A DNA stretch of 64,000 nucleotides from Nemertoderma westbladi (lineage: Eukaryota > Animalia > Xenacoelomorpha). The translations under genes and the position numbers were made by a program. The stretch lies in assembly GCA_032718475.1 (NCBI GenBank), contig JAUCBJ010005958.1, positions 1 to 64,000 of the forward strand, given 5' to 3'. The notes under the pieces are model-generated. The model ran no database searches and was not told the origin of the DNA. It worked only from the letters and a program-made list of their open reading frames with translations. Below, piece after piece: positions 2,099 through 27,651 of this stretch (position 1 is the stretch's first letter; each line of letters opens with the position of its first letter).

Positions 2099-3419
2099 GT
2101 TTAGCTATACAGTTGAATGCCTACTACTATAGTTTCAGTTAAAGCAAGTCTGGTAATTCAGTATGACCGCAAGCCTAGCGATTTATTACCGGTACCGTTA
2201 CTCAGTGTAACGTGATATATATACAATATATTAGAATACCGGTATGCTTATATATATATATAAGTATTATTACAGACTAGATTTGTCACAGAGTACCGGT
2301 ATATAATTTTAGCACAAATATATATAAATATATATAGTAGGCCTATCGTGAATACCGGTATACAGCTGACACTTATAGTATATATAAGTATAATTATGAA
2401 CTAGAATTAATTACAGAGTACCGGTATGATTTCAGCTCAAATTTATAGAAACAAATATAATAAGCCTATGGTAAGTACCGGTATGTCAATTATTTTTTAG
2501 AATAATTGAATTTCTGAATATTTTAGGGTTACTTGGTTACTTTAACTTACTTTATTACCGTTATTTAAGCAGTAGTCCAACTGATATTGAGACCTAGTTG
2601 TTGTATGTCAGGCCTACTATTTATAAATCGTTTGAGTTGATTTATAATATTTATATACCCGTTTAAAAATGGGTTTTGTCAATATTTGAAATAAATGTTA
2701 TTATTTCTGGGAAGTAATCACTACACAAAAGCTGTGCGCTCTCAGTGAAGTGCTACTTATTTGACACTAAAACTGATAATTCTAATTTACCTAAGTTACT
2801 TAATACTACAAATTACTTACTATACTGGTGAGATTAATTCTCTAATTAAACACAACAAAAATATTACGTACGAAATTTTTTAGGGTAATTTTACAGGAAG
2901 TCTACAAACCAGCCTAACAAAGGGTTAGAATTCTGATTATTACAACGGACAGGGTACTACGGTATTTGAAATAATAAGTAGTAGTAAATATACTGTACTG
3001 TCCAGATAGGAAAATACCACCGCCTGACGACCTATAACCGTATCGCTATAGGTACTACGTTATGTATCACGGATTGTTCCTACCCAGAAGCTAATAGAGC
3101 TAACGAATGTGCCTATCAACCACTTTACAACACAAATATACTGCCTACACTAATTACTTCGGAAAGCACTGTACACTAAACCCTAAATTAGGTACAAGTA
3201 CCGGTATAACAAATAATCAGTAGTTAAATATACTTGAACAGTTAAAAGAACCACGGCATCTGCTGGAGTGACCGAAGCACAAAGTCTCCAGTCTTGTACC
3301 TACGCCGAGCAGCCCTGATGTAGTACCGGGGTTAGTTTAACTATAACGGTATGTATAACAAGCACAATTACTGTAGGAATAAACTTGGGGACATGAATGT
3401 TGCGAATAATCGCATAAAC

Positions 3420-4000
3420 TCTGAATAATAAATATTACGCTACCCGTACAGAATACTCAAACAAAATACAAACCAAACGCTGGCAGACTACTATCAAGCC
3501 TAAACAAACTACAGTATGTGCAGATTCTGAAACTGTTAGTTAGTATGCGTTCTAACACGGTAGTACGACTTATTCTTTAAGAGGGGATTGACCTTACAGC
3601 ATATGGCTGCCCCAACTTACTAACGGCACTTTATCAGACCAACTCTACACACGCAGCAATCCCTTCAGGCCTAAGAATAGCTAGACAACAATCCAGCCTA
3701 CAAAATATCTGAGTAATAACTATTACGGTACCCGAACAGACTACACAAACAAACACAGGCTAAAACACTGGCAGACTACGATCAAGCCTAAATAAACTAC
3801 AGTATATGCAGATTCTGAAACAGTTAGTTAGTATGCGTTCTAACACGGTAGTACGACTTATTCTTTAAGAGGGGATTGACCTTACCGCATATGGCTGCCC
3901 CAACTTACTAACGGCACTTTATCAGACAAACTCTACACACGCCGTAATCTCTCCAAACCCAACAACAGTCAGACAGCAGTTCAGCCTACAATTATCTGAA
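3420..4000. repeat. ~290-bp tandem duplication in the 5' UTR of copy A
   Basis: TAGTATGCGTTCTAACACGGTAGTACGACTTATTCTTTAAGAGGGG occurs at about 3541 and about 3829. Confidence 0.85.
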
Positions 4001-4316
4001 CAATCTGAGCAGACTTACACGTCTTCAGCTCAATATTAACTTACTAGGAAATAAAACCGACAGAAATAAGTAAGCTCCAAAAGAAACAAGGGGTGTACAG
4101 TCCCTAATCTCTTAAACAGCCTACCGGTATACAATAATCAAAATCGAATAATACTAAATGTACTTATACAGCAGTACCGGTTAGGACAGTTGGGCCTACA
4201 GACCTACCGAAGTACCGGTTCTGGCAGTTGGACCTACTGACCTACAGAAGTACCGGTTCAGGTTTACCGGTCACTACGGTATTTTGCAACCTTATTGCCT
4301 ACTGCAATAAGATCGT

Positions 4317-4326
4317 TAACTGTTAC
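4317..4326 (-). promoter_or_regulatory. PBS-position 10-mer GTAACAGTTA, complementary to LTR site 5066-5075 (putative self-priming site)
   Basis: Directly abuts the LTR CA end, has no TGG tRNA-type start, and is the exact reverse complement of 5066-5075. Confidence 0.7.
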
Positions 4327-5522
4327 TGTTCGCGCTTTTGAAGACCTTTAGCAGTTTAACCTGCCAAAATTTATATGTCTTTTAGTTAATTAAAACACCT
4401 TTAGCATACGACAATATTTTATGCTAATACACAAAACATTACCCGAAGTCAGCCCATGCGCGATCATTCACCCGATGGATCTACACCCGGGAGGCTGAAT
4501 TCGGCTGCTTAAATTTTATTATTGCAGTGTAAGGTTGCAGTGTAAACTTACTGTATTATTCGATAGATCGTTAATAATTAATCTCTGACAGATATTATTG
4601 GCTTTCGGGAAATATTAACAGTTCCTTTAGGACGTGGCGCTCTATCTATTTAAACAGAACTAGGACTTATACTAAACGCAACGATACCGCTTATGATTAA
4701 AGTATAAGGCGTATTCTTTAGGAAATACTTTGTTACCAATCACAATCATGCACACTATTCTGCCGACCGTCAGTAAATTTGATCACACATAAAGAGAGCA
4801 GCAATTGACTCATGTAGGGTCTGCTAAATAACATTAGATTCAATACACACCACATTAATATAAATCGCAATTGTTATGTATAGCCTGTCTCTCTAACCTG
4901 TAGTGTATCAAGAAAATTGGGAAATTTGGGTGATTTATCCGTATTATCCAAAGAGCAATATTTCCATCAACAAATAGATACAATTAATAACTGACGGTAA
5001 ATAACAGTACAAACAATATGATTAATAGTGAGTTAAGTAAGTTAAGATTGATTAGTTAAGTTAAGGTAACAGTTATACTTTCGATAATTTAAGCAGTTTT
5101 ACTGGAGTTATTCCCAAAAGCCGGTGTTATGGCGAAAAATGGGAACATAACAACAGAATCATATGAAAATCATATGACTAGAATGACTATACGAGTATAC
5201 CAACTACCCTTATTCCCCGAAGCTCCCGTCCAACACAGAGGATGAGCAGTGAGATAGGAAATTCAGTTCAGTAGCTCTGGGATAGGTCGAAATCAACGCC
5301 CACTCAAATTCTATTGGCCGATACGGACAGCAAGGCTAAGGCAACCTCTCTAAGCTAGTTGGCCGATTAAACTGAGCCCAGATATCTCCGTACAGCACAT
5401 CAGCCAATAAGCTGGTAGCTTGCACTATTTTAGTTATAAATCCCTTTGAGAGTATTCTAGCGACTGGGGGGGAACTGGCCAGCAAAGGCAAACGTATCAG
5501 TTATCCCACAAAAGCTTTTACA
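4327..5522 (-). repeat. 5' LTR of copy A (~1.2 kb)
   Basis: TG...CA ends. 4327-~5125 is alignable with the LTRs at 8069 and 18734, and the terminal CAAAAGCTTTTACA is shared. Confidence 0.9.
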
Positions 5523-6943
5523 GGGGGGGGGGGGGGGGGGGAATCGGCCCATTCCTAGTTTTTAGTTGCTGTAACTATGCAAGCACATTACGTACACGCC
5601 CAATTTTTATTGAGAATTACCCAAATTTAATGCCGCATCTTTTGCAAAAAACCACGTTGCAATTGGATTTCGACTTTTCGATGTGGGTGCCACCTCAAAA
5701 TTTGGTCTCCAGCACCAAATTTTTTGAAATTTTCGAATTTTACAAAGTCATTCGTGATTTAGTAATTATTTATGTTTGGGCTATTTTTATTTATTTTTAT
5801 TGGTTTGGATCACTCTAATGCTCTATACAAGTATGTAAGTGTAGTGGTACGTCATTTTTGGAGCACCAAAATTAGGGCGTGGCACTTTAAAATTTCAAAA
5901 TTACTTTATTCGGAAAATTTACTAAAGTTTTGATTTCGAAGCATTTTTATTGGTTTTCTGGAGCGCTGAATCGATTGAAAGTAATATAGAAGCCTGAAGA
6001 CTTAGTGGTTCGCCATTTTTGGTGCACCAAAATTAGGGCGTGGCACTTCAAATTTTGAAAAATACGAGATTCGGAAAATACACTAAAGTTTTGATTTCAA
6101 AGCATTTTTATAGGTTTTCTGAAGCACTGAATCGATTGAAAGTAATATAGAAGCCTCAAATCCTTGGTGTACGTAATTTTCGGTGCACCAAAATTAGGGC
6201 GTGGCACTTCAAATTTTCAAAATTACTTTATTCGGAAAAAACACTAAAGTTTTGATTTCAAAAAATGGCTAACCTCTAAGTCTTCAGGCTTCTATATTAC
6301 TTTCAATCGATTCAGCGGTCTAGAAAACCTATATAAATGCGTTAAAATTTCAATTTTGGTTTATTTTCCGAATCTCGTATTTTTCAAAATTTGAAGTGCC
6401 ACGCCCTAATTTTGGTGCACCAAAAATGGCGAACCACTAAGTCTTCAGGCTTCTATATTACTTTCAATCGATTCAGCGGCCCAGAAAACCTATAAAGATG
6501 CGTTGAAATAAAAAATTAGGGGCATTTTCTGAATATCTAATTTTTCAAAATTTGAAGTGCCACGCCCACTTCTTAGGTGCACGAAAAATAGCATCCACTT
6601 CAATTTTTGGAAATGGAATATAATCACATTCGATTCAGCGTCTTGAAAAACCTACTAAATCTAGCCAACACTGCCACACTATTAGTTTTTAGAAAACGAA
6701 AAATTTTGTAATTTTGTCCTGGGACTACTTTTATTTTTCATCAAAATTATGATTCCCTGCTTATGAAATTTTAACTTTTTAAGGTTTGGTAGTGTTCATC
6801 TATAGTTGTTTCACCAACAGCCCAAATTTTGTAGGATTTCATTGGACGATTACAAAAATATAGTGGGTGGGCCGAATCGCCCCCCCCCCCCCCCCCCCCC
6901 CCCCAGTGGTGCTAATGGTCAAAACACCCCAGTGGTAATAGGG
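5523..6943. mobile_element. piggyBac-like non-autonomous element (right part; left end displaced by copy A)
   Basis: Ends TAATAGGG|TTAA. G-tract AATCGGCCC / GGGCCGAATCG C-tract subterminal inverted motifs. Internal AAATTAGGGCGTGGCACTT repeats in both orientations. Confidence 0.6.
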
Positions 6944-8068
6944 TTAAGGGCACGTGTTTGTCCATAAATTTGACTATTAAGGGGGAGGGGGGGGGGGGGG
7001 GGGGGGGGGTGGGGGTACACCATTTTGGTCCAAAATATGTCGAAATTTTTTTTATGGTCTATTATAATGCACCATTGAATGGTGTTTCCAAATCTGAAAA
7101 CCGCTATTTAATAGCTCTTTTAGTTTTCAAGTTATGTAAATTTCCATTTAGGGAATCCTATTGAAATTACTATTACTATGTATAATGAAAGGTCGATTAT
7201 CTCCAAATATTTTTTTCATGAAATTGTCAACTTCAAAACCCTACTACTTCTACAATTTTTGAGTAATTAGTCTGAAACTTCCTGTGGGTGTCTAGATAGC
7301 CACCCTGCATAAAAGTATCAGACAACTTTTCGAAATTTTTTGTTAATAAAATTTAATACTATTTATAAAAAACCTAAAAATTAGCATAAATTTGCAGCGC
7401 CACCTAGCGGTGCAGAATTATTTTAACAAAATTTCGCCTGATAGTTATGTTGCCCCATCTTTGATCTATCATATAAAAAAACTTTCATGTGATTCTAAAA
7501 TTTTCAATATGGGGGTTTTCTGGGGTGGTGATTGCATTTCCGATGTCAGTTTTGACGTTTGATGAATTCCAGTCTGTCAGTCTGTCTGTTTGTCGGACAA
7601 TCTGTCTGTCTGTCAGTCAAAAATTAAGGAAACACACTACCAAACTGAAATTTAGGTTATGGGGGTTTTCCTGGTCGGTGATTTCAACACCGAAGTTAGT
7701 TTTGACGTTTGAAGAATTCTAGACTGTCTAACTGTCAGTCTGTTTGTTTATCAGACAATATGTCCGTCTGTCAGTCGAAATTTAGGAAACGACTCGACAT
7801 CGCTAAAAATTGATTTAAAGGGGTTTTCCTGGTCGGTGATTCCATTTCTGATGTCAATATTTGAATATAATGGCTTTGTGTTGGGTCTGTATTCATGTCG
7901 GTCTGTCCGTCAAAATATAACAGACAGATAGACAGCATAATATACCATCTAGAATCCATTAACCGTTAAAATGGACATAAGAAATGGAATCATAGACCAG
8001 GAAAACCTCTACAACAATATTTTCAGTTGTGTATTTCGTTCATTACTTTTTGACTGACAGACAGGCCA

Positions 8069-9244
8069 TGTTTGCGCTTTTGAAGACCTTTGACAGTTTA
8101 ACCTGCCAAAATTAGAATGTCTTTTGGATGATAGATAGTCTTTAGCCTATGACGAGTATTTGATACACTACATTAGCCGAAGCCAGTCTATGCGCAATCA
8201 TTCACCCGTTGGATATACCCGGGAGACTGAGTTCGGAGCTTAATGATTGATGGTGTAAGCCTACCGTATTATTCGACTGATCGTAATATATAATCTCTGA
8301 CAAATATTATTCACTTTCGGGAAATATTAACAGTTCCTTTAGGACGTGGCGCTCTAAATATGTAAACAGAGTTATGGCTTAAACTAGACACAACGAAAAG
8401 GCTATAGATTCACGTATATGGCGCATTCTTTAGGAGATGCTTTGTTATCAGTTACACTCATACACAATGCTGCACAATACTGCACACTAATCTGCCGACC
8501 TTCACTAAATTTGGTCACGTATAAAGAGAGTAACAGACAATACATGTCGGGCCTATAAAATAGCATGAGATTCACTTCAAACCACTTAACATAGGTCGCA
8601 ATCGTTTATCTGTAACCGATCTCTCTAACCTTTAGTATATCAAGAAGATTGGGATGTCGGACTATTGATCAGTATTCCGATATAATATTTCATCAACAAA
8701 TATAACGAATAATCAACAGCAAAGCAGTAAAGTTAAGGTATAAATGATTATTAAGTGAGTATAATTGGTTTGATTTGTATGTAAGTAGCTCGATAACAGA
8801 TATACGTTCTATAATTAAGCCTACTAATGTAAAGCTAAAGACTGAAACACGGAGGTGCCAAAAGCCGATGTTCTCTGGCTCTGGGCAAATACAACACTGA
8901 ATTCCTGAGTTTCGTATCCACCTCCAACACAGAGGCAAAAAACGCTCTGATTGGTCAACTAAATCAACAAGAGAACAAAGAAACAAAGAAACGTCGACGT
9001 GGCAATATCAGCTGTTAGCCGTCGTCATGGTAGCGACACTGTTTTCAAGAGTATCTAGCTTATCGCGTCACGAGATTGCGGATTATGTCCTCTAAAGTAC
9101 GAATACAGTACAAATACAGAAGAAATGACTTTTATGTCCTCTAAAACACCAGTACAGCAAGGACACGGCCTTTTTATGCCTGGCAAACCAACTACAGAGT
9201 ACTTTAAGGGAAAATAACCGGTTAATGACGCAAAAGCTTTTACA
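8069..9244 (-). repeat. 3' LTR of copy B
   Basis: Near-identical to 18734-19910 (about four substitutions and one 1-bp indel seen by eye). TG...CA ends. Confidence 0.95.
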
Positions 9245-9252
9245 CCGCTCCC
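9245..9252 (-). promoter_or_regulatory. polypurine tract GGGAGCGG
   Basis: Purine-rich run immediately before the 3' LTR on the minus strand. Confidence 0.7.
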
Positions 9253-9270
9253 AGAAAATGGGATTTAAGT

Positions 9271-10850
9271 CTATAAAATATAACAAATCACAGTTTCTAA
9301 AATATAAGAATACTCTAAACAGTTAGTCTTTCTTACGCGGACGGCGTTTACGCAGCCTTTTGAGGCTAGCAAGAGTCCTTTTCTCTTTGGGGCGAGCCAC
9401 TTTACTAGGAGGGCTATAAATCCTGGGTGAAGGGTGCAATATGATTGCATCAGAAGGTGTAGGATTATGGTCGGGGTATCCGCCGTTTCGATATGCTTCT
9501 CCTCGAGCTGATTTTCCTCCGCTCGTAGCTGGATACGTTCATCCAAAAACTCTCGCAGAGAATGGGGTTGTCTAAGTTCGATATCTTCTTAGAGATTCTG
9601 GATTTCACAATCGAACTGAGATAAAGACAATTCGTTTATCGCTTGGACTTGCTGTTACAACTTACGTTTATCTGAACAAACGCAGGTTTCCTTTCTGATC
9701 TTTGTGGAATAGCGTTTAACTCGTTTGGTACAACGTTCTCCGCCACTTTGGTGACAGGTTATATCGTGTTAAGCCGGGATGATGGTAAGGGTTAAACGGC
9801 GATATTAAATGTCCGCGTCCCAATCCGGCTAGGGAGAATGGGCTAATATCTAGGAAGCCCACAACTGGGGTGCCACCGACTAATTGTTCAGGTAACACTA
9901 GATCTTTGAGCAGTGAGTACAGCTCGGGAGGATCCGTCATACTAATAGGATCAAGAGTCTGAAGTCTCACTAGGGAATGAGGAGTTCTGATCGAGTATTC
10001 CGAAACTCTGATCATTGGTTTATTTAAGGATCGTCTGAGTCGAACGATCGTAGGTGATACATCGAACAAGTTTCGCTCGAAACTCCCGTAAGTATAGCGA
10101 GTAAAACCGTGTTTAAAGCAACGTCTCCGCGGATGTTTATGTCTTTCCGTTTGTTGGTTGGGTCTTGGGCATTCATCGCAATAATACCAAAAACGCACGT
10201 CTTGTAGGGGAAACGCGAGTGATCTTTCTCCAGCTTACAATATTCCTCCATCCGTTCGAAGCTATCCGGTACAACAGGTAGCGATCGATCGGCGGTAAGA
10301 TACATCATAGTGGAATAGAGCCGTTTGAGTTCCACCATGCGGTCATGATGTATACCTTGAGGATATCGAGTTTCTAGATTCTGTTGACTGGTAATATCGA
10401 GATAGGTTTCTCTCAAGAATTCCAGGTATTTGGTGGAGTCGCTGCGTTTATCCGGCTCTTCGACATCTGCACTTTCGAGTCGGTTTCGAATAGAATTTTC
10501 GTGTTCGAGTCTCAGTTTATCGTTCCGCTTCCGCTGGGTATGATATTTAAATAAACCATTTCCCTTTGGTGTCTATATCGTTCGTATCGTGTAGGTCGAG
10601 AGGATGACCAGTAGTTAAGAAGTCCATATACGTACCATTACGATGCGTATAGCGAGCGATGAATTTTCTACAGTCTAACCCACGCGCAAGTTGCTCCCGG
10701 GACATTGGCGGTTAGATATAACGACCATCGTCCTCCGTAGTAGTTGGACCAGCGTCGCCGCGTATCAGGCTATCAACAAACGCTTGTAAAGGTAGAGTAT
10801 ATCGCTCCCTGATACCAAGATCATCTTCTATCAACTCAATCATATCTGCT
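9271..10850 (-). pseudogene. decayed accessory ORF of unknown function downstream of gag-pro
   Basis: Chain of same-strand open segments (MIELIEDD.., MSREQLARGLDCRKF.., 10024-10416, 9716-10198, 9271-9546) separated by single stops or frameshifts. More GC-rich than its flanks. Confidence 0.55.
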
Positions 10851-11669
10851 ATATAAGTTTATCCATATTATAATGAGTTTATATTTAGGCGAGCGGGCGT
10901 CGCTGCCTACCCCTCTCTGCCCCCGGACAGTGCGAGATCCTCAGCGCTGGTGTACTTTCGCCGATGTGCCTATCGCCAACGTCGTAGCTGCACAACGACT
11001 ACAACAACCAGCACGAGCCACTCCACCGTCCGTCCCAAAGGCTTAGATATACTTCAGGTTCTTACTGGAGAGTTAGGGTTACTTTCACAATTGCGACTCG
11101 CTACTGTAAACACACCTTAGTAGTAACATTCGCCTACAAACGCACAAATTCCACGTAACAGTCACAAATGGTACACATTCTATCACACATTCGGGTCATT
11201 TGTCCGTTAGTCAAGTGCCTTCCAGAATGTCACGTTGTTATTATGTATTCTTGGATACTAGCGGTGTGCTATTTATTCCGTATGCTATTCAATACGCAAG
11301 CCCTTTATTGTTCTTTTAACTCACTTCTAATTCTAGCGTGGTTGTTGCCATGGTGACATTATGGAAAGCTAGCGGTAGAATTAGGGTAATTCTCATGCAT
11401 ACAGATCTGGGATGCTATTTAATAGTAATTCTTTAATTGTCAATATCCTCTCTATATATGATTTTATGAATTTTATCGGCTATTGACTATACATTGGAGA
11501 TTCTCACACACAAATACACTTAATATAGTGAATCTCCGCTCCCATGATCTATTAATTAATGGAATTTTGGGAATGTTATAAATTGTATAAAAATGACAAT
11601 TTATCAAATTCATTAAAAGATGAATTTAAATTTATTCCCGTAAATTTTATTATTTAATATTAAATAGAC

Positions 11670-11935
11670 ACAATTTTATTCCAGAACATGTCTGGGGACT
11701 GGGATCCTTGATTCTAGGAAATTGGTCTTTTTAAGAGTAAGTGCTACGATATCTTAATAGACTAGAATTTTAAAGGATCTGATATTTGACAGATTTTTGT
11801 AAATATTAATAATTAATATTTAGGATGGGCACCAATTTATTCCAGAACTTGTCTGGGGACGTTAACCATTGATTCTAGAAATTTGTCTTTCAAGTATATC
11901 GGTGGGTGCCGCGATATCTTAATCGACTAGAATTA
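11670..11935. repeat. diverged tandem duplication (~160-bp period) in the 3' region of copy B
   Basis: TTTATTCCAGAAC.TGTCTGGGGAC...GATATCTTAAT.GACTAGAATT occurs twice. Confidence 0.7.
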
Positions 11936-12480
11936 CAGATGGTCAAAGGGTTTAACAGATTTATTTTGCGTTATACGCTACTGTTAAAGGGACATCACGC
12001 TACTATATGTATTATTTAATATACGGTATGAGAGCAATATCGCACGAAGCAATGTCAGTGTGAAGAGGCAAGTCGTTTCCAAGGTCTACCCAGAGCTTGG
12101 TTTAGCCGAGACACGAGGATCTGAACTTTGCATTCCTAATACTCTGCCTACCAATAATACTGAATATAGTAGTGGCTTTATTGTACTTTAGTAAGTACAA
12201 AGATTTCATCTTACTGTAGTCACGTATTGATAATGTAATACGGGCAGTAAGGAAAGAGAAAAAGAATTATTTCTCGCCGTCGCGCTAAATATATAATATA
12301 CGTAATTAAATAATAAACGCGAATATATATTGCACTAATCTACTAGATCGCTAAAATAACATTCTACTAAATAAAATTAAAGAAAACGATTATAATAAAA
12401 TGACATAATAATACATACATAATATAAAATAATAAAAATAAATATAAAATAATATAGTCACACACCCACTCCGTATGTTG

Positions 12481-15400
12481 TTACGTTATGGAGTCCCTAG
12501 ATATTTGTTGGATTAGGGAGGTGGTCGTGGGAAGATTATCTTGCCTTCCATAGTTTCCGGACAGTTTTCGGTCTCTTTCCGGTAAACATAAACGACCAGC
12601 TGGGCGATTGAGTGGTTGTGTTACTTTCTCCGCTCCCTTGGCCTGTCTAATCTTCACCGGGGTAAGATGAGGAGGCCATTCATCTTCTTTACTTAGGAAG
12701 TTGGGTCCACCTAACCGGTTTGGAGTATCTGTAAGTTCTTGAGGAGTTGCTCCTCTGGAAGCGATGTCGGCTAAATTGATCGTCTCGGGGCAATGTCTCC
12801 ATTGATCTTCATTGGAGTTGATGTCGTCATTATCTGAGGAGTGTGGTGTTCCCTCAGTTGGGTCGTCTCCCTCACTAGTATCATCTTCCCATTCACTTAC
12901 CTGGCAGACGCGATCTTGAGGTAGTCTTTCTCTGAGCGTTCTACGGGAAGGTCCAGTAAGGTACCAACCTACTCTAGTTCTTCCCGCATAAGCTTGTAGT
13001 GGTTGCGGTTGAGCAGGTCGTTTCTCCAATGTCTCCAGCGCCTCATGTGCGTTTTGACCGATTAATATTTGTACTCCAGGATAATCGGTGTCGAATCTAG
13101 GAATGTTAAGTTGTTGGGCATGATCATCTTCGTCCCAATTATAAGGTTCCACTTGGGTGGTAGCGAAGTTCTTTATTGCCACCATTTTGACTGACCTTAT
13201 ACTGTATTCTCCTAGTTTATCCTGTGGAGTGGACAACTCACCTATATAATAGTCGGCAGCCACAGCAGATTTCCAAACCTGCATGATCCCTGACATGTTT
13301 AGCTTGGTTCGGAACTTGGGTTGTCCAGCAAAGATGTCTTCGGCTAGTTCTTTATCGATGAATGTTCCTGTGCTGCCGGAGTCCAGGAGGGCGTTCACTA
13401 TATAGCTCTTCTGAGGTCCGTGGACCCGTAACTGGACTACAGGAAATTCTCGGATTCCTACATTTGAAGTTGGCGCTTTCCAAGATTGTTGTTGATCTGA
13501 AGTAGTTAGGGTGAGGTCGCTGTCTGTGTCTTTCTCATACATGAGTGCTCGATACACTGCGGTGGCGTTTATTAAGTAACAGGATTCGTTTTGGTCGGAG
13601 AATTCGTCCGTATAGAATCCTTCCATCTCAGATTGATCAGTGTCGTTCACATCACTGAATTGGACATGTAGTTCGGAATCACTCACCTGACTCGGACTAT
13701 TTCGCTCGAATTCAGTGTGCAACAAGATATGATGTTTCGCACCGCACTTTGCACACCTTGCATCGGAGTAACAGGTTCGCCGTTGGTGTCCTCGTCTGAG
13801 GCAATTATAACACAACCGCTTATCCCACATGACTTCCCGTCTCTCTTTTAATGATTTCTTTAAGAATTCATCGCACATATTCAAGCGGTGGGGCCCGTCG
13901 CACAGCACACATTTGGGTTTGATGTTACTTACTTTAACATGTGCTGTGTGGTGCACGTTCGTTCTTTCCTCGGGCTTTCTCACCTGAATTCTCTTGGGAG
14001 ACGTAGGAGGAGTTTTTCTTACCTGTTCTCTCCGGTCATTGGTTCGAGACTTGAATTTACTTACCTGGTCTTTAGGCATTTTATTTACGTAATAAGATCT
14101 TTCAGTGTCTTTCCCGCTATCCTCTCTTTGAGAAGTCTGGTTTTCGCCGTCGTCTGTATAACACACTGGTGTTACCCTTCTCCTAGAAACGGGTTTCTCA
14201 CTCACCTTGTTTTCCAGTGTCTTCTCTCTGGACTGCCTTAGGAGCTGTAATTTCACTTCTCCATCTAAGAATGACATGAGATCAGCCATGGTAGGGTCTC
14301 GTCGTTGTTGTTCCATCATATATAACACTTTCTTATCCCAGCGTGTACCTACTCCACCCTTCGGTAAAGCAGAAGCCACTGCTCTAATAACCATAGCACT
14401 CTGATACTCATGAGACTTACCTAGCCAATCTAATTGTCTGCAGATCTCCTGAATCTCATCGGAAAACTCTATAATTCCGCTGCTAATAAACTTTCGGGGC
14501 GCTACCAACTTTGCATACAAATACCCAGCTATGTTATTCCTATTACCATACCTGATGTTTAGTGTATCCCAAACTTGTCTTAATCCGTCTGGATGTCCAA
14601 TAAACTTTAACGCCATTAACTTGGGAGATCCTTCCAAGCACTCGATGAGGAATCTAAGTTTCTCTCCATTAGATAGTACAGAGTTCTGTATGTTATCTTT
14701 GTAATATTCATTAAAAGGTAACCATTTCATCTCATCTCCATTGAACTTGACGATCTCTCCCACCTTTACCGCTTGCCGGGCTTCGGTTCTAGCCATTTGA
14801 CGCGTAAAATTTTCTTGGGCCATCGTGTTATTTAATATCGAGTTATCGGTATATAAATTTCTTGGATTATGATCCGGTCTATAGGGAATATCATTATCAA
14901 CAGGTCTATAATTACCCTTAATAGGGTTCACTATAGGAGTTTCTACTTCACTAGCAGTATAGATGCGTGTAGGCTCCACACCTTGCGCATGAGATACTTC
15001 AGACCTAACAGGTTGACACATTGTTACAGGGGGTGGTGGTATACCCTTTTGTAAATTTACTAATTTATCGCGTTCTAGCGCGATACTTTGCTGCACTTCT
15101 TGCAACTCTAGCCTACTTTCCCTTACTGTGCCCTTTAACTGTTGAACAGTCCCTTCTAACTCTCGGACCTGTTGAGAGGAGCGTACTCGATTCTCCTCCA
15201 TCTTTGCGAGGAGAATGTCCATCCCCCGCCGTCTCTCGTCCACCCAATCAACCGCCGAAACGGTATCCGCCAACGCTGTAGCGGGCGGACGAGGGACAAC
15301 GGGCGACAAATCATGAATATTTCGCTCGGAGTCCAGGGCATGAACTGTCTCATGGGCTGTTCTGCTGGGCACAGGTAGCTTAGTGCTGTGCAAAGGGAAT

Positions 15401-16557
15401 TGAGAGGTAGGTTCAGGGAGTACAGGTGTCTCTATGACCGAAAGGGTGGCTTCGGGAACAGGCCTAACTATTTCAGGCTCATCTACTATAGTAGGGAGTC
15501 TCTCTATTGTAATTATTTGGTCTGTGGGTTCTGTACTACCTAAGTTGGTGTTATTTAGTTGTCTTCTAACAGCTGGAGGCAAATCAGACAATTTCTGACG
15601 GTGGAATGTTCTTTTACGTCTGCTTAGGTGAGATCTATTTCCTTTGCCTTCAGTGTCGGTGGTATCGCCTTCCTCAGATGATGTATAACCTTGTCTTTTG
15701 GGAGTAGATCGATTCATCATCTGCATATTACTAGCTGTTAACTGTTTATTAAAGTTGTCTTGTCTCTCTTGAAGATTTTCCAACTCTAGTTGGGTTGTCT
15801 CTTCAGATGCCCTCCGTTCTGCTTCTGCCACTGCTATTTTTCTTTCCGCTTCTGCTGCTGCCACTGCCGCTGCTGCTGTCTTTCTATCTTCTATACGTTT
15901 TTTCTTTACTTGTTCTTCTTGAACCTTAGCGATGCGGATACTTTCATCGAATTTAGCTTGGTTCGCAGCTAACATTTCCGCATCGATTGCGTCCAGCACA
16001 AGCTTGGTTCCTTCACTATTAGGGCTAAGCCCCTCCAGCCTTCTCCTCAACTCTTCATCTCCTACAAAGCGTTGATAGTCTGACAGATAGATGTCAATAG
16101 CATCCCTCTTATGCGGTTTCTCTGCTGTCACTTCGCTTTCTTCTTGAGAAGAAGTGGCGTCGGTTGATTCTTCATAGGTTGGCCGCTCATCATAAACCTT
16201 ATCCACCATCTTCGCTCCGCGTTCGGGCGTCCGCTCATCAGTATCCGAACTACTGGAGCTATCGGGCCGCTGAAAACTAGGTTCTTGGCTAGGATGTTGC
16301 TGCTGTTTGACAGCTGCTTCTTGATCCCGCTTGACTTGGGCCCGAGTGCCGATGATAGACCTACGATGTTGGACTAGCCTAGGATCTGACACTACTTCTG
16401 TAGGGATGGCCTTTCTCACAGCAGGAGGTGACTTAGACTTGGATCTAGGATGTTCTATACTTGGATCTGGGTCACTGATCTTTTTAAGACACTGTCTAAC
16501 AGTCATTCTAACACTATCTAGGAGACTATCCGACAGTGTTTGGGTCGTTTCAGACAT
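12481..16557 (-). CDS. BEL/Pao Gag-protease polyprotein with only remnants of RNase H and integrase C-termini (1358 aa)
   Basis: DUF1759-like gag core (KFNGDEMKW..LSNGEKLRFL..LEG..L.IRYGN), three BEL-type zinc knuckles (CVLCDGPHRLNMC, CYNCLRRGHQRRTC, CAKCGAKHHILLH), aspartic protease ALLDSGSTGTFI..ILIG..TRVGWYLTGP, then WRHCPETINLADIASRG..GPNFL..EDEWP and LNRPAGRLCL. No YxDD motif. Confidence 0.9.
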   Translation of the reverse strand: MSETTQTLSDSLLDSVRMTVRQCLKKISDPDPSIEHPRSKSKSPPAVRKAIPTEVVSDPRLVQHRRSIIGTRAQVKRDQEAAVKQQQHPSQEPSFQRPDSSSSSDTDERTPERGAKMVDKVYDERPTYEESTDATSSQEESEVTAEKPHKRDAIDIYLSDYQRFVGDEELRRRLEGLSPNSEGTKLVLDAIDAEMLAANQAKFDESIRIAKVQEEQVKKKRIEDRKTAAAAVAAAEAERKIAVAEAERRASEETTQLELENLQERQDNFNKQLTASNMQMMNRSTPKRQGYTSSEEGDTTDTEGKGNRSHLSRRKRTFHRQKLSDLPPAVRRQLNNTNLGSTEPTDQIITIERLPTIVDEPEIVRPVPEATLSVIETPVLPEPTSQFPLHSTKLPVPSRTAHETVHALDSERNIHDLSPVVPRPPATALADTVSAVDWVDERRRGMDILLAKMEENRVRSSQQVRELEGTVQQLKGTVRESRLELQEVQQSIALERDKLVNLQKGIPPPPVTMCQPVRSEVSHAQGVEPTRIYTASEVETPIVNPIKGNYRPVDNDIPYRPDHNPRNLYTDNSILNNTMAQENFTRQMARTEARQAVKVGEIVKFNGDEMKWLPFNEYYKDNIQNSVLSNGEKLRFLIECLEGSPKLMALKFIGHPDGLRQVWDTLNIRYGNRNNIAGYLYAKLVAPRKFISSGIIEFSDEIQEICRQLDWLGKSHEYQSAMVIRAVASALPKGGVGTRWDKKVLYMMEQQRRDPTMADLMSFLDGEVKLQLLRQSREKTLENKVSEKPVSRRRVTPVCYTDDGENQTSQREDSGKDTERSYYVNKMPKDQVSKFKSRTNDRREQVRKTPPTSPKRIQVRKPEERTNVHHTAHVKVSNIKPKCVLCDGPHRLNMCDEFLKKSLKERREVMWDKRLCYNCLRRGHQRRTCYSDARCAKCGAKHHILLHTEFERNSPSQVSDSELHVQFSDVNDTDQSEMEGFYTDEFSDQNESCYLINATAVYRALMYEKDTDSDLTLTTSDQQQSWKAPTSNVGIREFPVVQLRVHGPQKSYIVNALLDSGSTGTFIDKELAEDIFAGQPKFRTKLNMSGIMQVWKSAVAADYYIGELSTPQDKLGEYSIRSVKMVAIKNFATTQVEPYNWDEDDHAQQLNIPRFDTDYPGVQILIGQNAHEALETLEKRPAQPQPLQAYAGRTRVGWYLTGPSRRTLRERLPQDRVCQVSEWEDDTSEGDDPTEGTPHSSDNDDINSNEDQWRHCPETINLADIASRGATPQELTDTPNRLGGPNFLSKEDEWPPHLTPVKIRQAKGAEKVTQPLNRPAGRLCLPERDRKLSGNYGRQDNLPTTTSLIQQISRDSIT

Positions 16558-17869
16558 GTTTGTTTACACAGTTGAATGCCTACGGCTATAAATACAGTTA
16601 AAGCAAGTCTAGTAAGTCAGTATCACTGTTAGCCCAATAATTAATTACCGATACTGCTACTCAGTGGAGCGTGATATATATATAATATATTAGAATACCG
16701 GTATGCTTATAGTATATATAAGTATTATTACAAACTAGGTTTTCACAGAAACCGGTATATAATTTTAGCACAAATATATATAAATATATAATAGGCCTAT
16801 CGTGGATACCGGTATGCAGTTTACACTTATAGTATATATAAGTATAATTACAGACTAGAATTAATTACAGAATACCGGTATGATTTCAACCTAAAATTTA
16901 TAGAAATAAATATAATAAGCCTATTTTAAATACCGGTATGTCAATTATTTTAAATAATTGAATTTCTGAATTTTAAGGGTTACTTGGTTACTTTAACTTA
17001 CTTTATTACCGTTATTTAAGCAGTAGTCCAACTGATATTGAGACCTAATTGTTATATGGCAGGCCTACTATTTATAAATCGTTTGAGTTGATTTATAATA
17101 TATATATACCCGTTTTAATGGGTTTTGTCAATGTTTGAAATAAATGTTATTATTTCTGGGGAGTAATCACTACACAAAGCGGTGCGCTTTCAGTGAAGTG
17201 TTACTTATAGGACACTAAAACAAATAATTCTAATTTACCTAAGTTACTTAATACTACAAATTACGTACAATTCGGGTGAGATTACAATCTCTAAATAAAC
17301 ACAAAAATTTACAAAAAACACAAAATACGAATTTTCAGGGTAATTTTACAAGAAGTCTACAAACCAGCCTAACAAAGGGTTAGAAATCTGGTTATTACAA
17401 CGGACAGGTTACTACGGTTTTTGAAAATAATAAGTAGTAGTAAATATACTGCGCTGTCCAGATAGGAAAATACCACCGCCTGACGACCTATAGCCGTATC
17501 GCTATAGGTACTACGTTATGTATCACGGAGTGTTCCTACCTAGAAGTTAATAGAGCTAACGTACGTGCCTATCAACCACTTTACAACACAAATATAATGC
17601 CTACACAAATTACTCTCGGAAAGTACTGTACACTAAACCCTAAATTAGGTACAAGTACTTGTACAACAAATAATCAGTAGTTAAAAATACTTGAACAGCC
17701 AAAAGAACCACGGTATCTGCTGGAGTGACCGGTGCACAAAATCACCAGTCTTTACCTACGCCAAGCAGCCCGTATAGTACCGGGGTTAGTTTAACTATAA
17801 CGGTATGTATAACAAACACAATTACTGTAGGAATAAACTTGGGGATATGAATGTTGCGAATAATCGCAT

Positions 17870-18460
17870 AAACTCTGAATAATAAATATTACGCTACGCG
17901 TACAAACTACTCAAACAAAATGCAGACCAAATACTGACAGACTACTATCAAGCCTAAACAAACTACGGTATATGCAGACTCCGAAATGATTAAGTAGTAT
18001 GCGTTCTAACCCAGTAGTACGACTTATTCTTTAGATGGGGGTTTACCTTACAGCGATGGCTGCCCCTACTTCCTAACCGTTCTTTATCGGACAGATGCTT
18101 TGCACACACCGAAATTTCCTCAAACCCAACAACAGCCAGACAACTATCCAGCCTACAAATTATCTAAATAAAATTATACGCTACCCGTACAGACTACACA
18201 AACAAAGTACAGACCAAACGCTGGCGGACTCCTATCAGGCCTAAATAAACCACAGGACATGCAGACTCCAAAATGGTTAAGTAGTATGCGTTCTAACCCA
18301 GTAGTACGACTTATTCTTTAGATGGGGGTTTACCTTACAGCGATGGCTGCCCCTACTTCCTAACCGTTCTTTATCGGACATACACTCTACATGCACTGCA
18401 ATCCGTTCAGACTTAATCAACAGTTAGCCAACAGTCAAGCCTACAAATTATCTGTACAAT
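17870..18460. repeat. ~290-bp tandem duplication in the 5' UTR of copy B
   Basis: TAAGTAGTATGCGTTCTAACCCAGTAGTACGACTTATTCTTTAGATGGGGG occurs at about 17991 and about 18278. Confidence 0.85.
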
Positions 18461-18722
18461 CTGAGCAGGCTTACACGCCTTCTGCTCAATATTAACCTAC
18501 AAATAAATAAAACTTGACAGAAACAAGTAAAATCTCAATAAAAAACCAGGGCGGCCGTCCCTGATTAATTATTAAGGCCTACCGGTATATAATTATAAAA
18601 ATCGAATAATACTGCTGTACCTGTACTGTAAGTACCGGTTCGGATGATCAGGCAGTCAGGGCTACTGGTTACCGGTCGACCGGTACTTTCGACTAGATTG
18701 CTTACACCGCAATCCAGAAGCA

Positions 18723-18733
18723 ATATCTGTTAT
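18723..18733 (-). promoter_or_regulatory. PBS-position 11-mer ATAACAGATAT, complementary to LTR site 19458-19468 (putative self-priming site)
   Basis: Directly abuts the LTR CA end and is the exact reverse complement of 19458-19468 (also 8793-8803 in the 3' LTR). Confidence 0.72.
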
Positions 18734-19910
18734 TGTTTGCGCTTTTGAAGACCTTTGACAGTTTAACCTGCCAAAATTAGAATGTCTTTTGGATGATAGA
18801 TAGTCTTTAGCCTATGACGAGTATTTGATACACTACATTAGCCGAAGCCAGTCTATGCGCAATCATTCACCCGTTGGATATACCCGGGAGACTGAGTTCG
18901 GGGCTTAATGATTGATGGTGTAAGCCTACCGTATTATTCGACTGATCGTAATATATAATCTCTGACAAATATTATTAACTTTCGGGAAATATTAACAGTT
19001 CCTTTAGGACGTGGCGCTCTAAATATGTAAACAGAGTTATGGCTTAAACTAGTCACAACGAAAAGGCTATAGATTCACGTATATGGCGCATTCTTTAGGA
19101 GATGCTTTGTTATCAGTTACACTCATACACAATGCTGCACAATACTGCACACTAATCTGCCGACCTTCACTAAATTTGGTCACGTATAAAGAGAGTAACA
19201 GACAATACATGTCGGGCCTATAAAATAGCATGAGATTCACTTCAAACTACTTAACATAGGTCGCAATCGTTTATCTGTAACCGATCTCTCTAACCTTTAG
19301 TATATCAAGAAGATTGGGATGTCGGACTATTGATCAGTATTCCGATATAATATTTCATCAACAAATATAACGAATAATCAACAGCAAAGCAGTAAAGTTA
19401 AGGTATAAATGATTATTAAGTGAGTATAATTGGTTTGATTTGTATGTAAGTAGCTCGATAACAGATATACGTTCTATAATTAAGCCTACTAATGTAAAGC
19501 TAAAGACTGAAACACGGAGGTGCCAAAAGCCGATGTTCTCTGGCTCTGGGCAAATACAACACTGAATTCCTGAGTTTCTGTATCCACCTCCAACACAGAG
19601 GCAAAAAACGCTCTGATTGGTCAACTAAATCAACAAGAGAACAAAGAAACAAAGAAACGTCGACGTGGCAATATCAGCTGTTAGCCGTCGTCATGGTAGC
19701 GACACTGTTTTCAAGAGTATCTAGCTTATCGCGTCACGAGATTGCGGATTATGTCCTCTAAAGTACGAATACAGTACAAATACAGAAGAAATGACTTTTA
19801 TGTCCTCTAAAACACCAGTACAGCAAGGACACGGCCTTTTTATGCCTGGCAAACCAACTACAGAGTACTTTAAGGGAAAATAACCGGTTAATGACGCAAA
19901 AGCTTTTACA
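18734..19910 (-). repeat. 5' LTR of copy B
   Basis: Near-identical to 8069-9244 and followed by the TSD GGCCA. Confidence 0.95.
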
Positions 19911-21532
19911 GGCCAACAAATAGAAAGACAGACAGACAGACAGATAGACATGCAGGCAGGCAGGCGGAATGACAGACAATCTAGAATACATTAACGTTGA
20001 GACTGACATTATAAATGTGATCACTAAACAGGAAAATTCCTACAGTATGGCAAAATTGTACATTGCATGTGTTTCTTAATTTTGTCAGACTGACCGACTG
20101 ACAGACAAACAGACAGCTATAACTCGAGAACTAAAAGAGATCTCGCTATGTCGTTTTCAGTTTTGAAATTGCCATTAAATTTTGATACAGATTCCGTAAA
20201 AACAAGTTTTTGATTTTTTTAAATTTTGACCACAAACACGTGCCCTTAAATAATCTAAAACTGGTAATAAAATATACTTGCAAAAAAGTGACCAATATAA
20301 ATAGACCATAAGCGATCTTAAGGTAGACACCCAAAATATGAATAAGAAAATGAATCTTGGAAAAGGATGGCGCTATCGATTGAGATCGATCGATGAAAAT
20401 TATTGTTGTAATAAGTCCTTGAGTAAGTTAAAAATTAAATTAAGTAGTTAGTATTAGTATGTCTGTTTTTGCTGTCTGTTTTAGTCTGTTTTGGCATTCT
20501 TTTGATATTGCGACTACAGTAATGCGATTTCGCAAAAGGCAAACAAATCACTATAAGATTGAAGAATAACAGCAGTACGACTGGTGAAATATCGTCGGAG
20601 ATACTTTTTTTAAATGAATGGTCGAGTAGCTATAATATATATAACAAATAACCGAATGAGAGAAGGCTTTCACATTCAAACATTTAGCCCTCTAGCGGCA
20701 AACATTAGAAGTTTAGATTGAGTCCAGTCCCACGAAGAAGCAGCGAATTCATTCGAGTATATTGCAATATGAATATCAGTCAAAAATTATGCAATGGGGT
20801 TCACGACTCAATCGGACACTATCGATCACGAATCAATCGATCACGAACACTATCGGTTTTACTAGAATCTGGAACATTTGTGGGAGTGAGTTAAAGACTA
20901 ATTCCACAATTAGATCCGAACTAACTTGAGGTTACCTTTCTTGGTAACTGAAACATGGCGATTTTTATTCAATTCTCGTGGAGTAAATTTATACTGATAC
21001 ATCTCTATGCATCCCTTTATCTATCTGGAAGATTGTTTTCGCAATGAGGACTAGCTAGTGCTTTATCTCATTCTTTGCGGGCCTGATAGATAGTATAACC
21101 AAGGTGGCATTTTTGTATGTGTGGCATTCCTTGACTTTCATGAGACTCCGCTTAAGGTCTTGAAGATGCGGTGATCTCGTGAATGTTATGAGTGTTGTTA
21201 TGTTGTGCGAGATGTGGCGGCCCAATTGTTTTGATATGGTGTGGCATAGCATTATCAATGCTATGCCGTTTATAGATAGGAGGAATCTGGAAGATCTCAA
21301 GAGGAACTACATCAATACCTCATGTATACCTTATGCTGCTCCTGGTATTAAGGCCCCGGTAGCGCTACTTCAATCATTTTTTCAAAATTTTTTTTTAATT
21401 TCATCTAGAGCAGCATCTTTATCAAGATTCAAAATTTGAAAACCTTTTAGCAAGATCTGTCTTACTTCTCGAGATATTGCTGTCTGTTCGTTTTACTGTC
21501 GGTTTTTCCGTCAGTATGTCTGTCCGTCAATA

Positions 21533-24283
21533 CTACTAGTATCGGCATGGTGCATTATTCACTCCATGAGGCTGCCAAAGTACAAGATTATGCACTGGCT
21601 GGTCCTCACGGCGAAAGCAATGTCCTGCAAAGCGGAGGCGAGTTTGTTCTAGTGTCAAGCTTGGGGAACCAATGAGACACCTCCAATGTTATATAGTGTC
21701 TGGTTGGAGATGTTTGCATTGTACTTGACACAATGAACCCGGCGTAGCATTCTTGTGAATGTGCCATCCAGAGATTTGGTGTCCTCAGCAGTTAGAGCCC
21801 AGCATGGACTCCCATAGAGGAGTACTGGAACTACTGCTGCTCTAAATAATCGGACCTTAAGTTTCCGATTAATTCTCGGTGACTTCCAACTCCTGGAAAG
21901 CCTATTCAAGGCTGCCCATGCCTTTCCCTTACGTATTCGAAGGTCCTCACCTGACTTCCGGATCCATGATCCCAGGTAACAGAAGTCGTCCACATGCCCA
22001 AGCATACCATCCTGCAAGGTTGACACTGTCGATCACAAAAAACTAATATATATTATGGATAATTGTATTGGGGTTCGTGGGACGGCATTGGACTGGTTCA
22101 CATCTTATCTCCATGGACGAACACAAGGAGTCAGGATTGGGGAGTCTTATTCAAAGCACCAAGATATTAAGTTTGGATTACCCCAAGGATCAGTGCTTGG
22201 TCCACTACTTTTTTCGATATATACTCGTTCACTATCACAGGTAATCAGGAAATACGGTCTTTCTCTCCATTTGTATGCTGACGACACGCAGTTGTATATA
22301 TCATTCAAACCTATAAATTATGTGGATGCTGTAAGTATAACCGAAAATTGTCTCAGAGATGTAAGAATTTGGATGAAGGACCATTTTTTAAAAATGAATA
22401 CAGATAAAACCGAGGTACTATTACTGCAGTCACGATTTGGTGACCAAGTTGCCCCCATCAAAGTTAATATTGGAAATGATTTTATATCTAACAGCGATCA
22501 CGCACGAAATATAGGTTTCATCATGGACTCGCACCTTACCTTTAAAAAACAAATCTCCAATGTTGTACGAGACTCGTTCTACCATCTTCGGAACCTATCT
22601 AAAATCAAGCGATATCTCTGCAAACCCGACTTAGAAATCTTAATACATGCTTTCATTACAAGTAAATTGGATAATAATAATTCTCTTTATTATGGATTGC
22701 CTTCCAAATATATGAAAAAGCTGCAATATGTACAAAACTCTGCCGCGCGACTATTAGAAAGTGTCAAGAAGCGAGAACACATAACTCCCGTTCTAAAACG
22801 ACTTCATTGGCTCCCTATTATTAGACGGGTGGAATTCAAATTGGCAATGTTGTGCTATAAGTGTCTGAATGGCTTGGCACCGCACTATCTCAGCGACTTA
22901 TTGACGCCATACACACCCGGTAGAGAATTACGCTCGAGCGCGGGTAATCTTTTGGTAACCCCTCGGTACTCGCTAGAGAACTATGGCAGGCGCGCATTCT
23001 CCATTGCCGGGCCACGTGTTTGGAATTCACTACCTTATGGCGTGCGATCAGCCACCACATTGACAACTTTTAAATCGAAACTGAAAACTGTTTTATTTCA
23101 ACGCGAGTACCATGATGCGCCTTTTTAACTCATTTTAACTCATTGTATATATGTTTTTATGTCAACATGTTTTTACTGTTTTTTACCGTATTGTTAATTT
23201 TTATTCAAAAGCGCCTTGAAATATGCCTAGAAAGGCGCTATATAAATAAATATATATTATTATTATTATTAAGGATGAGCTTATGCTCATCCGACCAGAG
23301 ACTTGCTGAGACTTTCAAAGTTAACTGTCAAAATTTTGGTCTTTCTGGAGTTAATAAAAAGACCAACACTAGAAGCAGCATGTTCTAATGAGCTGAGGAG
23401 CCGTTGGGCTCCCTCTAGAGATTCTGAGAGTACTCCTAAGTCATCAGCAAACTCTAGATCAGTTAGGTACTTGGCAGGAATTCCTCGACTTCTGGAGCCA
23501 GTAGGTGGAGTTATCATCACCCCATCATCATTATGATGATCTAAGGACATGCGTAGAACATAGTCAACCACAATTATGAACAAGAATGGTGTAAGTGTGT
23601 CTCCCTGGAGGACGCCCCATAACACTTCAAATGGTCTGTGTCACCATCAACAGTAGACACAAATGTTGTCGAACCATCGTATACTGATCTGATTGCTGCA
23701 ATAATTTCATCAGGAATCCCATATAATGAAAGTATGCTGAACATACGTGAGCGGGAGACTGAATCAAAGGCCTTGAAGATGTCAACAAAGATAACTTCAA
23801 GTGTAGACAGGCAACTTCATGTCTTTCTTTTTTGATAACTATTCAATTATCCTTCTAAGTGCCAAAATGGGCTCCATGGTCCCACGACCTTTACGAAACC
23901 CATTCTGATTTCCACGGAGCAGTCTCTCAATGGGATCCCTGATGCGATTTAATCGAATTCTATTGTATAGCTTTGCAGCAATCGAGATCAATGAGATTCC
24001 CAGAAAAGAACAATAGAGTGTTAGGTTGCCCTTCTTGGGAACTGGCACCTTACTTATTTGTTTTCATTTCTTGTGGGACTCTTGTTGTTCGGTACATGTC
24101 TACTATGATGGGATAGATGAGCTCTAAACACTCAGGTATTTTAAAGACCTCAGGGGAACACTATCTACTCCACTGGCACGATTGGTCTTAATGCTCTTTG
24201 CAGCAGCCTTCACTTCTGCAAAGGAGATATCGCCAATGGGAATATCTGGGAGAACAGACTCAGACACTTTTACTTCTATAATA
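21533..24283 (-). mobile_element. RTE-clade LINE fragment (family 1), frameshifted
   Basis: PVPKKGNL, QNGFRKGR, GVLQGDTLTPFLFIIVVDY, DLEFADD, FCYLGS, LLYGSPCW motifs. 11-bp TSD GTCCGTCAATA (21522-21532, 24284-24294). Confidence 0.9.
22014..23271 (+). mobile_element. 5'-truncated L2-type LINE inserted in the RTE; RT C-terminal ORF 22055-23128 is open
   Basis: DTVDH, GLPQGSVLGPLLFSIY, LYADDTQLY, HITPVLKRLHWLP, AGPRVWNSLP motifs. 3' stem-loop AGCGCCTT..AAGGCGCT and (TAT)n tail. Confidence 0.92.
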
Positions 24284-27064: not shown

Positions 27065-27651
27065 TATCAAGTTTGACTATATCATATTATATTAATTCAC
27101 ACAACACAGCTCGTTGTGATTTAACAACTAAATTAAAGTATTAAATTACTGATTATATACCTCTTTGTTTTCAAAAGTACTTTATCATTTATTTATTTGT
27201 TATTATACCTTTTGCCACCCATAGCCAATTACTGGCGAACCCTTTCAGGTTGGCTGTAACTGTTGTAAAATACGGATTTGAAGTAAAATATAGCAATTTA
27301 TGCAAAATCTGGCATTTTTTTGGGACTTAGGGAACATTTATCCTTATCTTAATGTATCTTTAGATTTCATGTGACCCAAATATGTTTGAATGCCCCCAAT
27401 TTTCATGCAGTCCAAGACACAGGTACATAGGGATATTTCACGAAAAAGTTGTTGGGTTTGGGGGTAACAAGATGCCCTGAATCGAGCCGCGGGGTGTTTT
27501 TGTTGAAAATGTGGAAACGGTCGATGGAGGGATGAAGTTATCCAATATGAGCCTAATTTGAAAGCAGGAGCTATTGGCTATGGCAGAAGTGATGTCATAA
27601 AATATGGAAATCTGCCTGTAGGCTATGGAGAGTGATTCAAATACATATTAA

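Follow-up and report, generated by a model that had tools for sequence, protein, structure and literature searches.

Families of long terminal repeat (LTR) retrotransposons that keep gag but are non-autonomous are already established, and they include a plant family with a Gag-protease design. (What we say of published systems rests on the parts of each source that were available.) RLG_Sabrina_SA of wheat and barley is a high-copy Gypsy family of 8.1-8.3 kb whose whole population lacks reverse transcriptase (RT) and integrase but has an intact GAG-protease ORF; it has been termed semi-autonomous, and its identified partner, Wilma, is alike in little beyond the LTR ends and the primer-binding site (PMC9744471). 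Other non-autonomous lineages that keep gag are RLG_Quinta (PMC11302176), TR-GAG (PMC4350172) and Athila (PMC2410132). These are also plant Gypsy or Copia elements, but the available parts of the papers mention Gag and no protease, and TR-GAG is under 4 kb. The ORFs of non-autonomous Athila elements are under purifying selection, and some of these elements have a further 3' ORF (PMC2410132). In mouse IAP 1-delta-1, an in-frame deletion produced a gag-pol fusion ORF that is kept for its action in cis; the element depends on other copies in trans, and it out-inserts them (PMC6466679).

BEL/Pao elements have LTRs of 0.2-1.2 kb, a usual length of 4.2-10 kb and a gypsy-like domain order (PMC3118150). 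The term "non-autonomous" does not occur in the available part of that survey, and we found no Gag-protease BEL/Pao family in the available parts of two other papers (PMC3286476, PMC3442997). More broadly, our literature search found no Gag-protease BEL/Pao lineage, although supplementary, Repbase or Dfam family tables may hold such elements. The one BEL/Pao case that we found is rooA, whose short copies are proposed to have spread with the aid of a helper (PMC3087523).

Here we describe an LTR element, copy B, in the first 64,000 nucleotides of contig JAUCBJ010005958.1 from Nemertoderma westbladi (hereafter the window). The window also contains copy A (1-5522, minus strand), which is about 80% identical to copy B and is cut by the window edge, leaving its 5' LTR (5522-4327), its leader and the N-terminus of its gag. 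We think it likely that copy B is a recent member of an abundant BEL/Pao-derived family that encodes Gag and protease, lacks RT and integrase, and relies on an autonomous BEL/Pao helper to mobilise it in trans. Like Sabrina_SA, this would be a high-copy LTR family in which the GAG-protease ORF is kept and RT and integrase are absent. Copy B differs from Sabrina_SA in its BEL/Pao source, in having pol remnants fused in frame, and in its length of 11.8 kb. The in-frame internal deletion that leaves a gag-pol fusion ORF recalls IAP 1-delta-1, but that element is derived from a retrovirus, has a single 1.9-kb deletion that removed part of gag as well as pol, and also receives Gag in trans.

Copy B lies on the minus strand and spans 11,842 bp from LTR to LTR (8069-19910). 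Its 5' LTR (18734-19910, 1177 nt) has TG...CA ends and no AATAAA in the sense orientation, and its 3' LTR (8069-9244, 1176 nt) is preceded by a short purine-rich tract. The initial annotation noted near-identical LTRs and an intact target-site duplication. Indeed, the two LTRs differ by four substitutions and one gap column (5 of 1177 columns), and TGGCC is present at both ends (19911-19915 upstream and 8064-8068 downstream). Copy B is a young LTR element that inserted recently, and its LTR identity and target-site duplication imply that retrotransposition took place after RT and integrase had been lost. BEL/Pao LTRs have TG...CA termini and a short target duplication, and copy B agrees with this group in its LTR size, its TG...CA ends and its 5-bp duplication. 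The element sits within an interspersed repeat (7500-8060 and 19911-20200), and contigs of other copies of this repeat connect 8043 to 20008 and 8050 to 20083.

Between the 5' LTR and ORF1 is a leader of 2.2 kb (16558-18733), with a tandem duplication of about 288 nt that is also present in copy A. Directly 3' of the 5' LTR, neither copy has a TGG-type primer-binding site (18733-18700 in copy B and 4326-4290 in copy A, minus strand), and the sequence after the LTR that is common to both copies is just a short TAACAG. There are no tRNA genes in the 64-kb window and hence no local host tRNA for comparison with a primer site. The single match to Rfam (E 0.3) fell far short of its threshold.

ORF1 of copy B (12481-16557, minus strand, with its ATG at 16557) encodes 1358 amino acids in one frame: Gag, protease, a remnant of RNase H, and a remnant that resembles the tail of integrase. 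The Gag portion is of the BEL/Pao type, with a DUF1759 domain (PF03564; 14362-14745, E 1.2e-10, above the cut-off) and three Cys/His zinc-knuckle motifs (13717-13911) that are the same as in full-length BEL/Pao relatives. The aspartic protease (12940-13443; LLDSG at 13389-13375 and GWYLTGP at 12969-12949) is also of the BEL/Pao type and scored 59.7 bits against a profile of eight BEL/Pao relatives. GWYLTGP is followed by 49 residues, WRHCP...EWP, 20 residues, LNRPAGRLCL, and 33 more residues. This is the order that had been read from the sequence at first, in a single frame from the end of the protease through an acidic linker of about 50 residues to the RNase H motif and the tail; its coordinates are correct. 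As in Sabrina_SA, the Gag-protease ORF of copy B is intact while RT and integrase are absent.

A homologue search with residues 590-1354 of ORF1 gave 11 matches from 6588 candidates, and BEL/Pao domains were present in every match. We built domain profiles from the eight matches that extend to the end of integrase and used leave-one-out controls. The RNase H C-terminal motif (12673-12819; WRHCP at 12801-12787 and EWP at 12681-12673) is 33-46% identical to the corresponding region of all eight full-length BEL/Pao proteins. It scored 46.4 bits (43-49 in the leave-one-out profiles), much like the held-out full-length proteins (46-64 bits). The initial annotation was therefore right about RNase H. 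Its second assignment, LNRPAGRLCL (12583-12612) as an integrase tail, is plausible but weak: the motif scored -0.9 to 4.9 bits, versus 6.6-30.7 bits for genuine tails in the leave-one-out tests, and 15-18 of 2000 shuffles equalled its score.

The acidic linker 1 (12820-12948) stands where relatives have RT and the greater part of RNase H, a gap of about 480-530 amino acids that we call junction 1. Linker 2 (12613-12672) stands where they have integrase, a gap of about 490-510 amino acids, or junction 2. From the end of the protease to the N-x-A-D motif there are 64 amino acids in copy B and 547-591 in relatives (6 of 8, those with both landmarks matched); from the N-x-A-D motif to the tail there are 57, versus 548-566 (4 of 8 relatives). 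No profile for RT, N-terminal RNase H, the integrase core or DUF5641 matched in any of the six frames of copy B or of the 64-kb window. Copy B scored at most 1.7 bits, while held-out controls reached 157-300 bits with the RT profile, 260-462 with that of the integrase core and 25-88 with that of DUF5641. This bears out the claim that RT and integrase are missing from an ORF that stayed open, as about 500 amino acids of each are absent. Autonomous BEL/Pao elements (P0002-P0010) share with copy B the DUF1759 Gag, the three zinc knuckles, the protease, the RNase H C-terminal motif, the gypsy-like domain order and the size of the LTR. In contrast to them, copy B has lost RT, most of RNase H and integrase, is 21-28% identical over long stretches, and exceeds the usual 4.2-10 kb. 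Because copy B has neither RT with a whole RNase H nor a DDE integrase, we classify it as a non-autonomous BEL/Pao derivative that works like Sabrina_SA.

We also considered splicing as a possible origin of both gaps in pol; the donor at 12900 is still in place, and neither junction has a strong acceptor, which leaves this origin neither favoured nor disfavoured. A multiple alignment that set the C-terminal part against full-length relatives was discarded because it forced linker 1 onto RT columns. Among 1352 candidates, no shorter protein with the same junctions passed, and a relative was encoded at none of the 44 pattern matches in metagenome contigs and not at the one in viral contigs.

If the junctions were unique to this locus, there would be no lineage to speak of, and the initial annotation suggested looking for other copies that share them. 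Eight public sequencing runs were listed, seven with part of the window, from four studies. We aligned X1, X3, X4, X5 and X6, and this comparison reaches copies that are over 80% identical to copy B. Records on copy B numbered 104,175 of 8,938,268 in X1 (where the matches leave some differences uncounted), 26,597 of 1,581,921 in X3, 1,109 of 1,901,655 in X4, and 689 of 15,198,257 in X5. In X6, the protease alone was covered, at low depth and with low-complexity sequence. Single X3 contigs on copy B were 4600-5500 deep, compared with 6-37 for five of the six listed flank contigs. This contrast suggests hundreds of copies and, together with the 5 differing columns of 1177 in the LTRs, points to a family that is abundant and recently inserting.

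Junction 1 is present in other copies. Record 10 of X4 covers 12790-13022 unbroken; over these 233 nt, which lead from the end of the protease into the RNase H motif, it has 26 differences. Linker 1 is also tiled by records 11 and 12 of X4, 5 and 6 of X3, and 21 and 22 of X5, with 5-35 differences; these records show up to 33 differences in 195 nt, and their depths reach 4629. (The junction records are among the 32 listed of about 2200 pieces in the region 12300-13300.) Because diverged contigs of X3, X4 and X5 cross junction 1, it is common to diverged copies in three other studies. The copies that carry it diverge from copy B by up to about 17%, and the three runs bear two organism labels. 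For junction 1, then, the loss extends beyond one copy, among copies over 80% alike.

These data largely refute the reading that copy B alone suffered two deletions or was collapsed in assembly, and we regard it as very improbable. In its favour, LTR elements often undergo internal deletion, and X1, the best-matching run, may be the window's own source. Against it, the diverged contigs come from three other studies and two organism labels, and in X3 just 1% of the records in 12300-13300 continue into unlike sequence. (The corresponding shares of 17% in X4 and 15% in X5 are partly due to AT-rich matches behind the stop codon.)

For junction 2 the outcome was mixed, and we consider it less secure than junction 1 as a family-wide feature. 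Summed contig depth in X1, which is not the same as copy number, shows no drop at either junction (680k and 523k in the junction bins, versus 532k and 783k in the protease and gag bins). Other copies branch at 12623, though: four X3 contigs, four X4 contigs and two X5 contigs depart from the copy B sequence there (among the 24 listed of about 196 loose ends), and none of the listed records bridges 12623-12653 with 31 letters on each side. These observations could be read as a stepwise loss, in which the loss of RT is family-wide, the loss of integrase is confined to the subfamily of copy B, and the branch leads to relatives that still bear integrase. The loose ends occur in three runs and have a median length of 130 letters in X4. 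But the two in X5 have a median of 71 letters, in a run whose longest record is 3067, and one X5 contig reconnects 12623 to 12565. A short alternative linker fits these lengths better than an integrase of 1.5 kb would, and the depth is level across 12623, so we think stepwise loss quite unlikely. (A single X4 contig that departs at 12565 looks, by eye, like adjacent letters of the window.) Also, an X4 contig with a depth of 550 and 21 letters on its short side links 12311 to 18157, which skips all of ORF1 and hints at a family of non-coding derivatives.

The gag gene of copy B is under purifying selection relative to copy A. Between the two copies, dN is 0.187 and dS is 0.634, so the dN/dS that the initial annotation proposed to compute is 0.29 (448 codons in three open pieces; Fisher p 1.8e-20). 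Because the pol region of copy A lies outside the window, part of this selection may date from autonomous ancestors. The frame of copy A is broken within an expanded repeat near 700-870. In the N-terminus of gag (1782-1236, minus strand), copy A is about 177 codons longer than copy B, in frame, which reflects either a third in-frame gap in copy B or an insertion in copy A; the extra codons had no match in Pfam or PHROG.

Variation among copies in the sequencing runs also bears on selection. Of 305 variable places, 40 were listed, and with the one outside ORF1 dropped, 19 of 39 are at third codon positions (p 0.033): 14 of 24 in the protease, 3 of 4 in linker 1, 2 of 6 in the RNase H motif, and 0 of 5 in the tail. 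In the tail, the five listed places all fall on second codon positions, which suggests that it is not under constraint. None of the 12 listed common indels (of 416) falls in ORF1, which makes up 32% of the stretch (P 0.009). In the region 12300-13300, nine of the 12 listed indels are behind the stop, and seven of these are not multiples of three. ORF1 holds the other three: a three-base insertion and a pair that balance each other. This contrast between the ORF and the spacer is weakened by the greater tendency of AT-rich sequence to acquire indels. The dN/dS, the lean towards third positions and the frame-keeping indels all indicate that ORF1 has been kept under selection, whether before or after the deletions.

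Copy B could instead be a passive passenger, a deleted derivative that a helper spreads. Its Gag-protease would then contribute nothing, and the youth of its source copies would be the only reason for the open ORF. The possible contribution of autonomous ancestors to the dN/dS and the second-position variation in the tail (among the listed places) would both agree with this, and helper-driven spread of short broken BEL/Pao copies has been proposed for rooA (PMC3087523). On the other hand, copies with junction 1 are up to about 17% diverged and their common indels still keep the frame, variation in the protease leans to third positions among the listed places, and copy B itself has a broken coding-like region at its 3' side. 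We therefore consider a passive passenger unlikely.

Returning to the proposal that copy B belongs to a Gag-protease family mobilised in trans, it could work as follows. The LTR would drive a full-length RNA, and ORF1 would be translated into a Gag-protease that builds and matures particles and favours packaging of its own RNA in cis. Pol from the helper would join the particle during assembly and reverse-transcribe the RNA of copy B, and the helper's integrase would act on the conserved LTR ends to give the 5-bp duplication. Both gaps in pol would be old in-frame losses that were fixed in a founder lineage. The LTRs of copies A and B share their first 14 nt and have near-identical 3' ends, while their first 500 columns are about 50% alike; this conservation of the ends is as expected if one integrase serves both. 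Of the suggestion that this is a specialised non-autonomous lineage, a capsid and protease of its own are supported by the shared junction 1 and the dN/dS, while the borrowing of enzymes from a helper is inferred. There is no autonomous helper within the 64-kb window. By analogy with Wilma and Sabrina, which are alike in little beyond LTR ends and primer-binding site (PMC9744471, in the part available), the helper may be less than 80% alike.

Downstream of ORF1 is an AT-rich spacer (10900-12480, minus strand, GC 35%) and then a coding-like region (9271-10899, minus strand, GC 44%) that is broken by stops and frame changes. Some invertebrate LTR elements are known to carry additional 3' ORFs (PMC5408684). 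The region of copy B had no Pfam match above noise and no match in PHROG or PDB, none of 23 candidates from a protein collection matched (95-305 amino acids only), and a single-sequence structure model had a pLDDT of 43. The bins at 8963-9804 are about five times deeper in X4 than the bins of ORF1, and this 3' part may be common to a more abundant family, possibly the helper.

Might this region encode a substitute enzyme, such as a tyrosine recombinase, in place of integrase? The best leads from the atlas were DUF3504 and DUF3435 clusters at 0.75-0.76 (otherwise below 0.8 or none), and scores below 0.9 are leads only. We take these domains to be linked to Crypton-type recombinases. But there is no supporting match from Pfam, PHROG, PDB or the protein collection, the region is broken in the young copy B, and RT would remain missing. 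Furthermore, TG...CA ends and a 5-bp duplication are marks of a DDE integrase, and copy B has both. A substitute enzyme seems extremely improbable.

While inspecting ORF1 by eye, we saw a cluster of sites that resemble the 5' splice donors recognised by U1. With at least 8 of 9 bases of the U1 donor consensus required, copy B has 13 such sites, 10 of which are within gag-protease on the sense strand (12895-14423, minus strand of the window); none is antisense there, and seven of the ten lie between codons. Elsewhere in the window, 88 kb of both strands together hold 16 such sites. Synonymous shuffles gave a mean of 2.2 sites, and none of 500 reached 10. Among degenerate 7-mers, AGGTRAG shows the strongest enrichment in ORF1 (8 occurrences versus 1.2), and family-wise 1 of 300 shuffles was as extreme. 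The tripeptides that carry the sites occur 8 times in copy B, versus 0-3 times in 11 relatives. The spacer downstream of the cluster has eight sense AATAAA motifs (1.8 expected; 0 of 500 shuffles), but this excess is weak because the antisense strand has five there and ten in the leader.

As a hypothesis, the U1-type cluster in front of the AATAAA-rich spacer might control splicing or polyadenylation. In the plant copia element EVD, a U1 site near the Gag-protease border governs splicing and premature termination: the donor that binds U1 there allows Gag RNA to be spliced and also holds premature termination in check (PMC5580714). By analogy, the cluster in copy B would probably restrain premature polyadenylation in the AT-rich spacer, or else define spliced forms of Gag. 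The comparison has limits, as EVD is an autonomous copia with one conserved donor that was tested by mutation, whereas copy B is a BEL/Pao derivative without Pol and has ten predicted sites.

A bolder version is that this is an old BEL/Pao satellite that makes its own particles, with the RNase H motif selected as a docking or cis element for the helper's Pol, and with the U1-type array switching between a short Gag-protease mRNA that ends in the spacer and the full genomic RNA. We offer this tentatively and think it rather doubtful.

The window also contains several features outside the two copies. At 31760-35737 (plus strand), an open frame of 1325 residues resembles, by eye, the RT-endonuclease of a non-LTR retrotransposon, and a 24-nt repeat, in about 25 copies, interrupts it without breaking the frame. 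An intron-free frame of 296 residues at 26186-27076 (minus strand) has a DUF3105 domain (E 2.7e-31) and a hydrophobic N-terminus. About 270 nt at 46515-46780, oriented opposite to the LTR, match a portion of it at 69% and are likely an old LTR fragment. Two LINE-like RT pieces (21586-22013 and 53065-53781) are inverted and near-identical, and 5824-6599 is a palindromic array of 161-nt units.

The family of copy B would carry the semi-autonomous Gag-protease design over from plant Gypsy elements to BEL/Pao, with a copy number that is apparently high. Such families escape surveys that are based on RT and integrase; the tree-based classification of BEL/Pao, for instance, used families with all three domains (PMC3118150, in the part available). 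Our literature search found no paper on the balance of Gag and Pol in single-ORF BEL/Pao elements, and the near-intact RNase H motif and the U1-type cluster provide testable handles on that balance.
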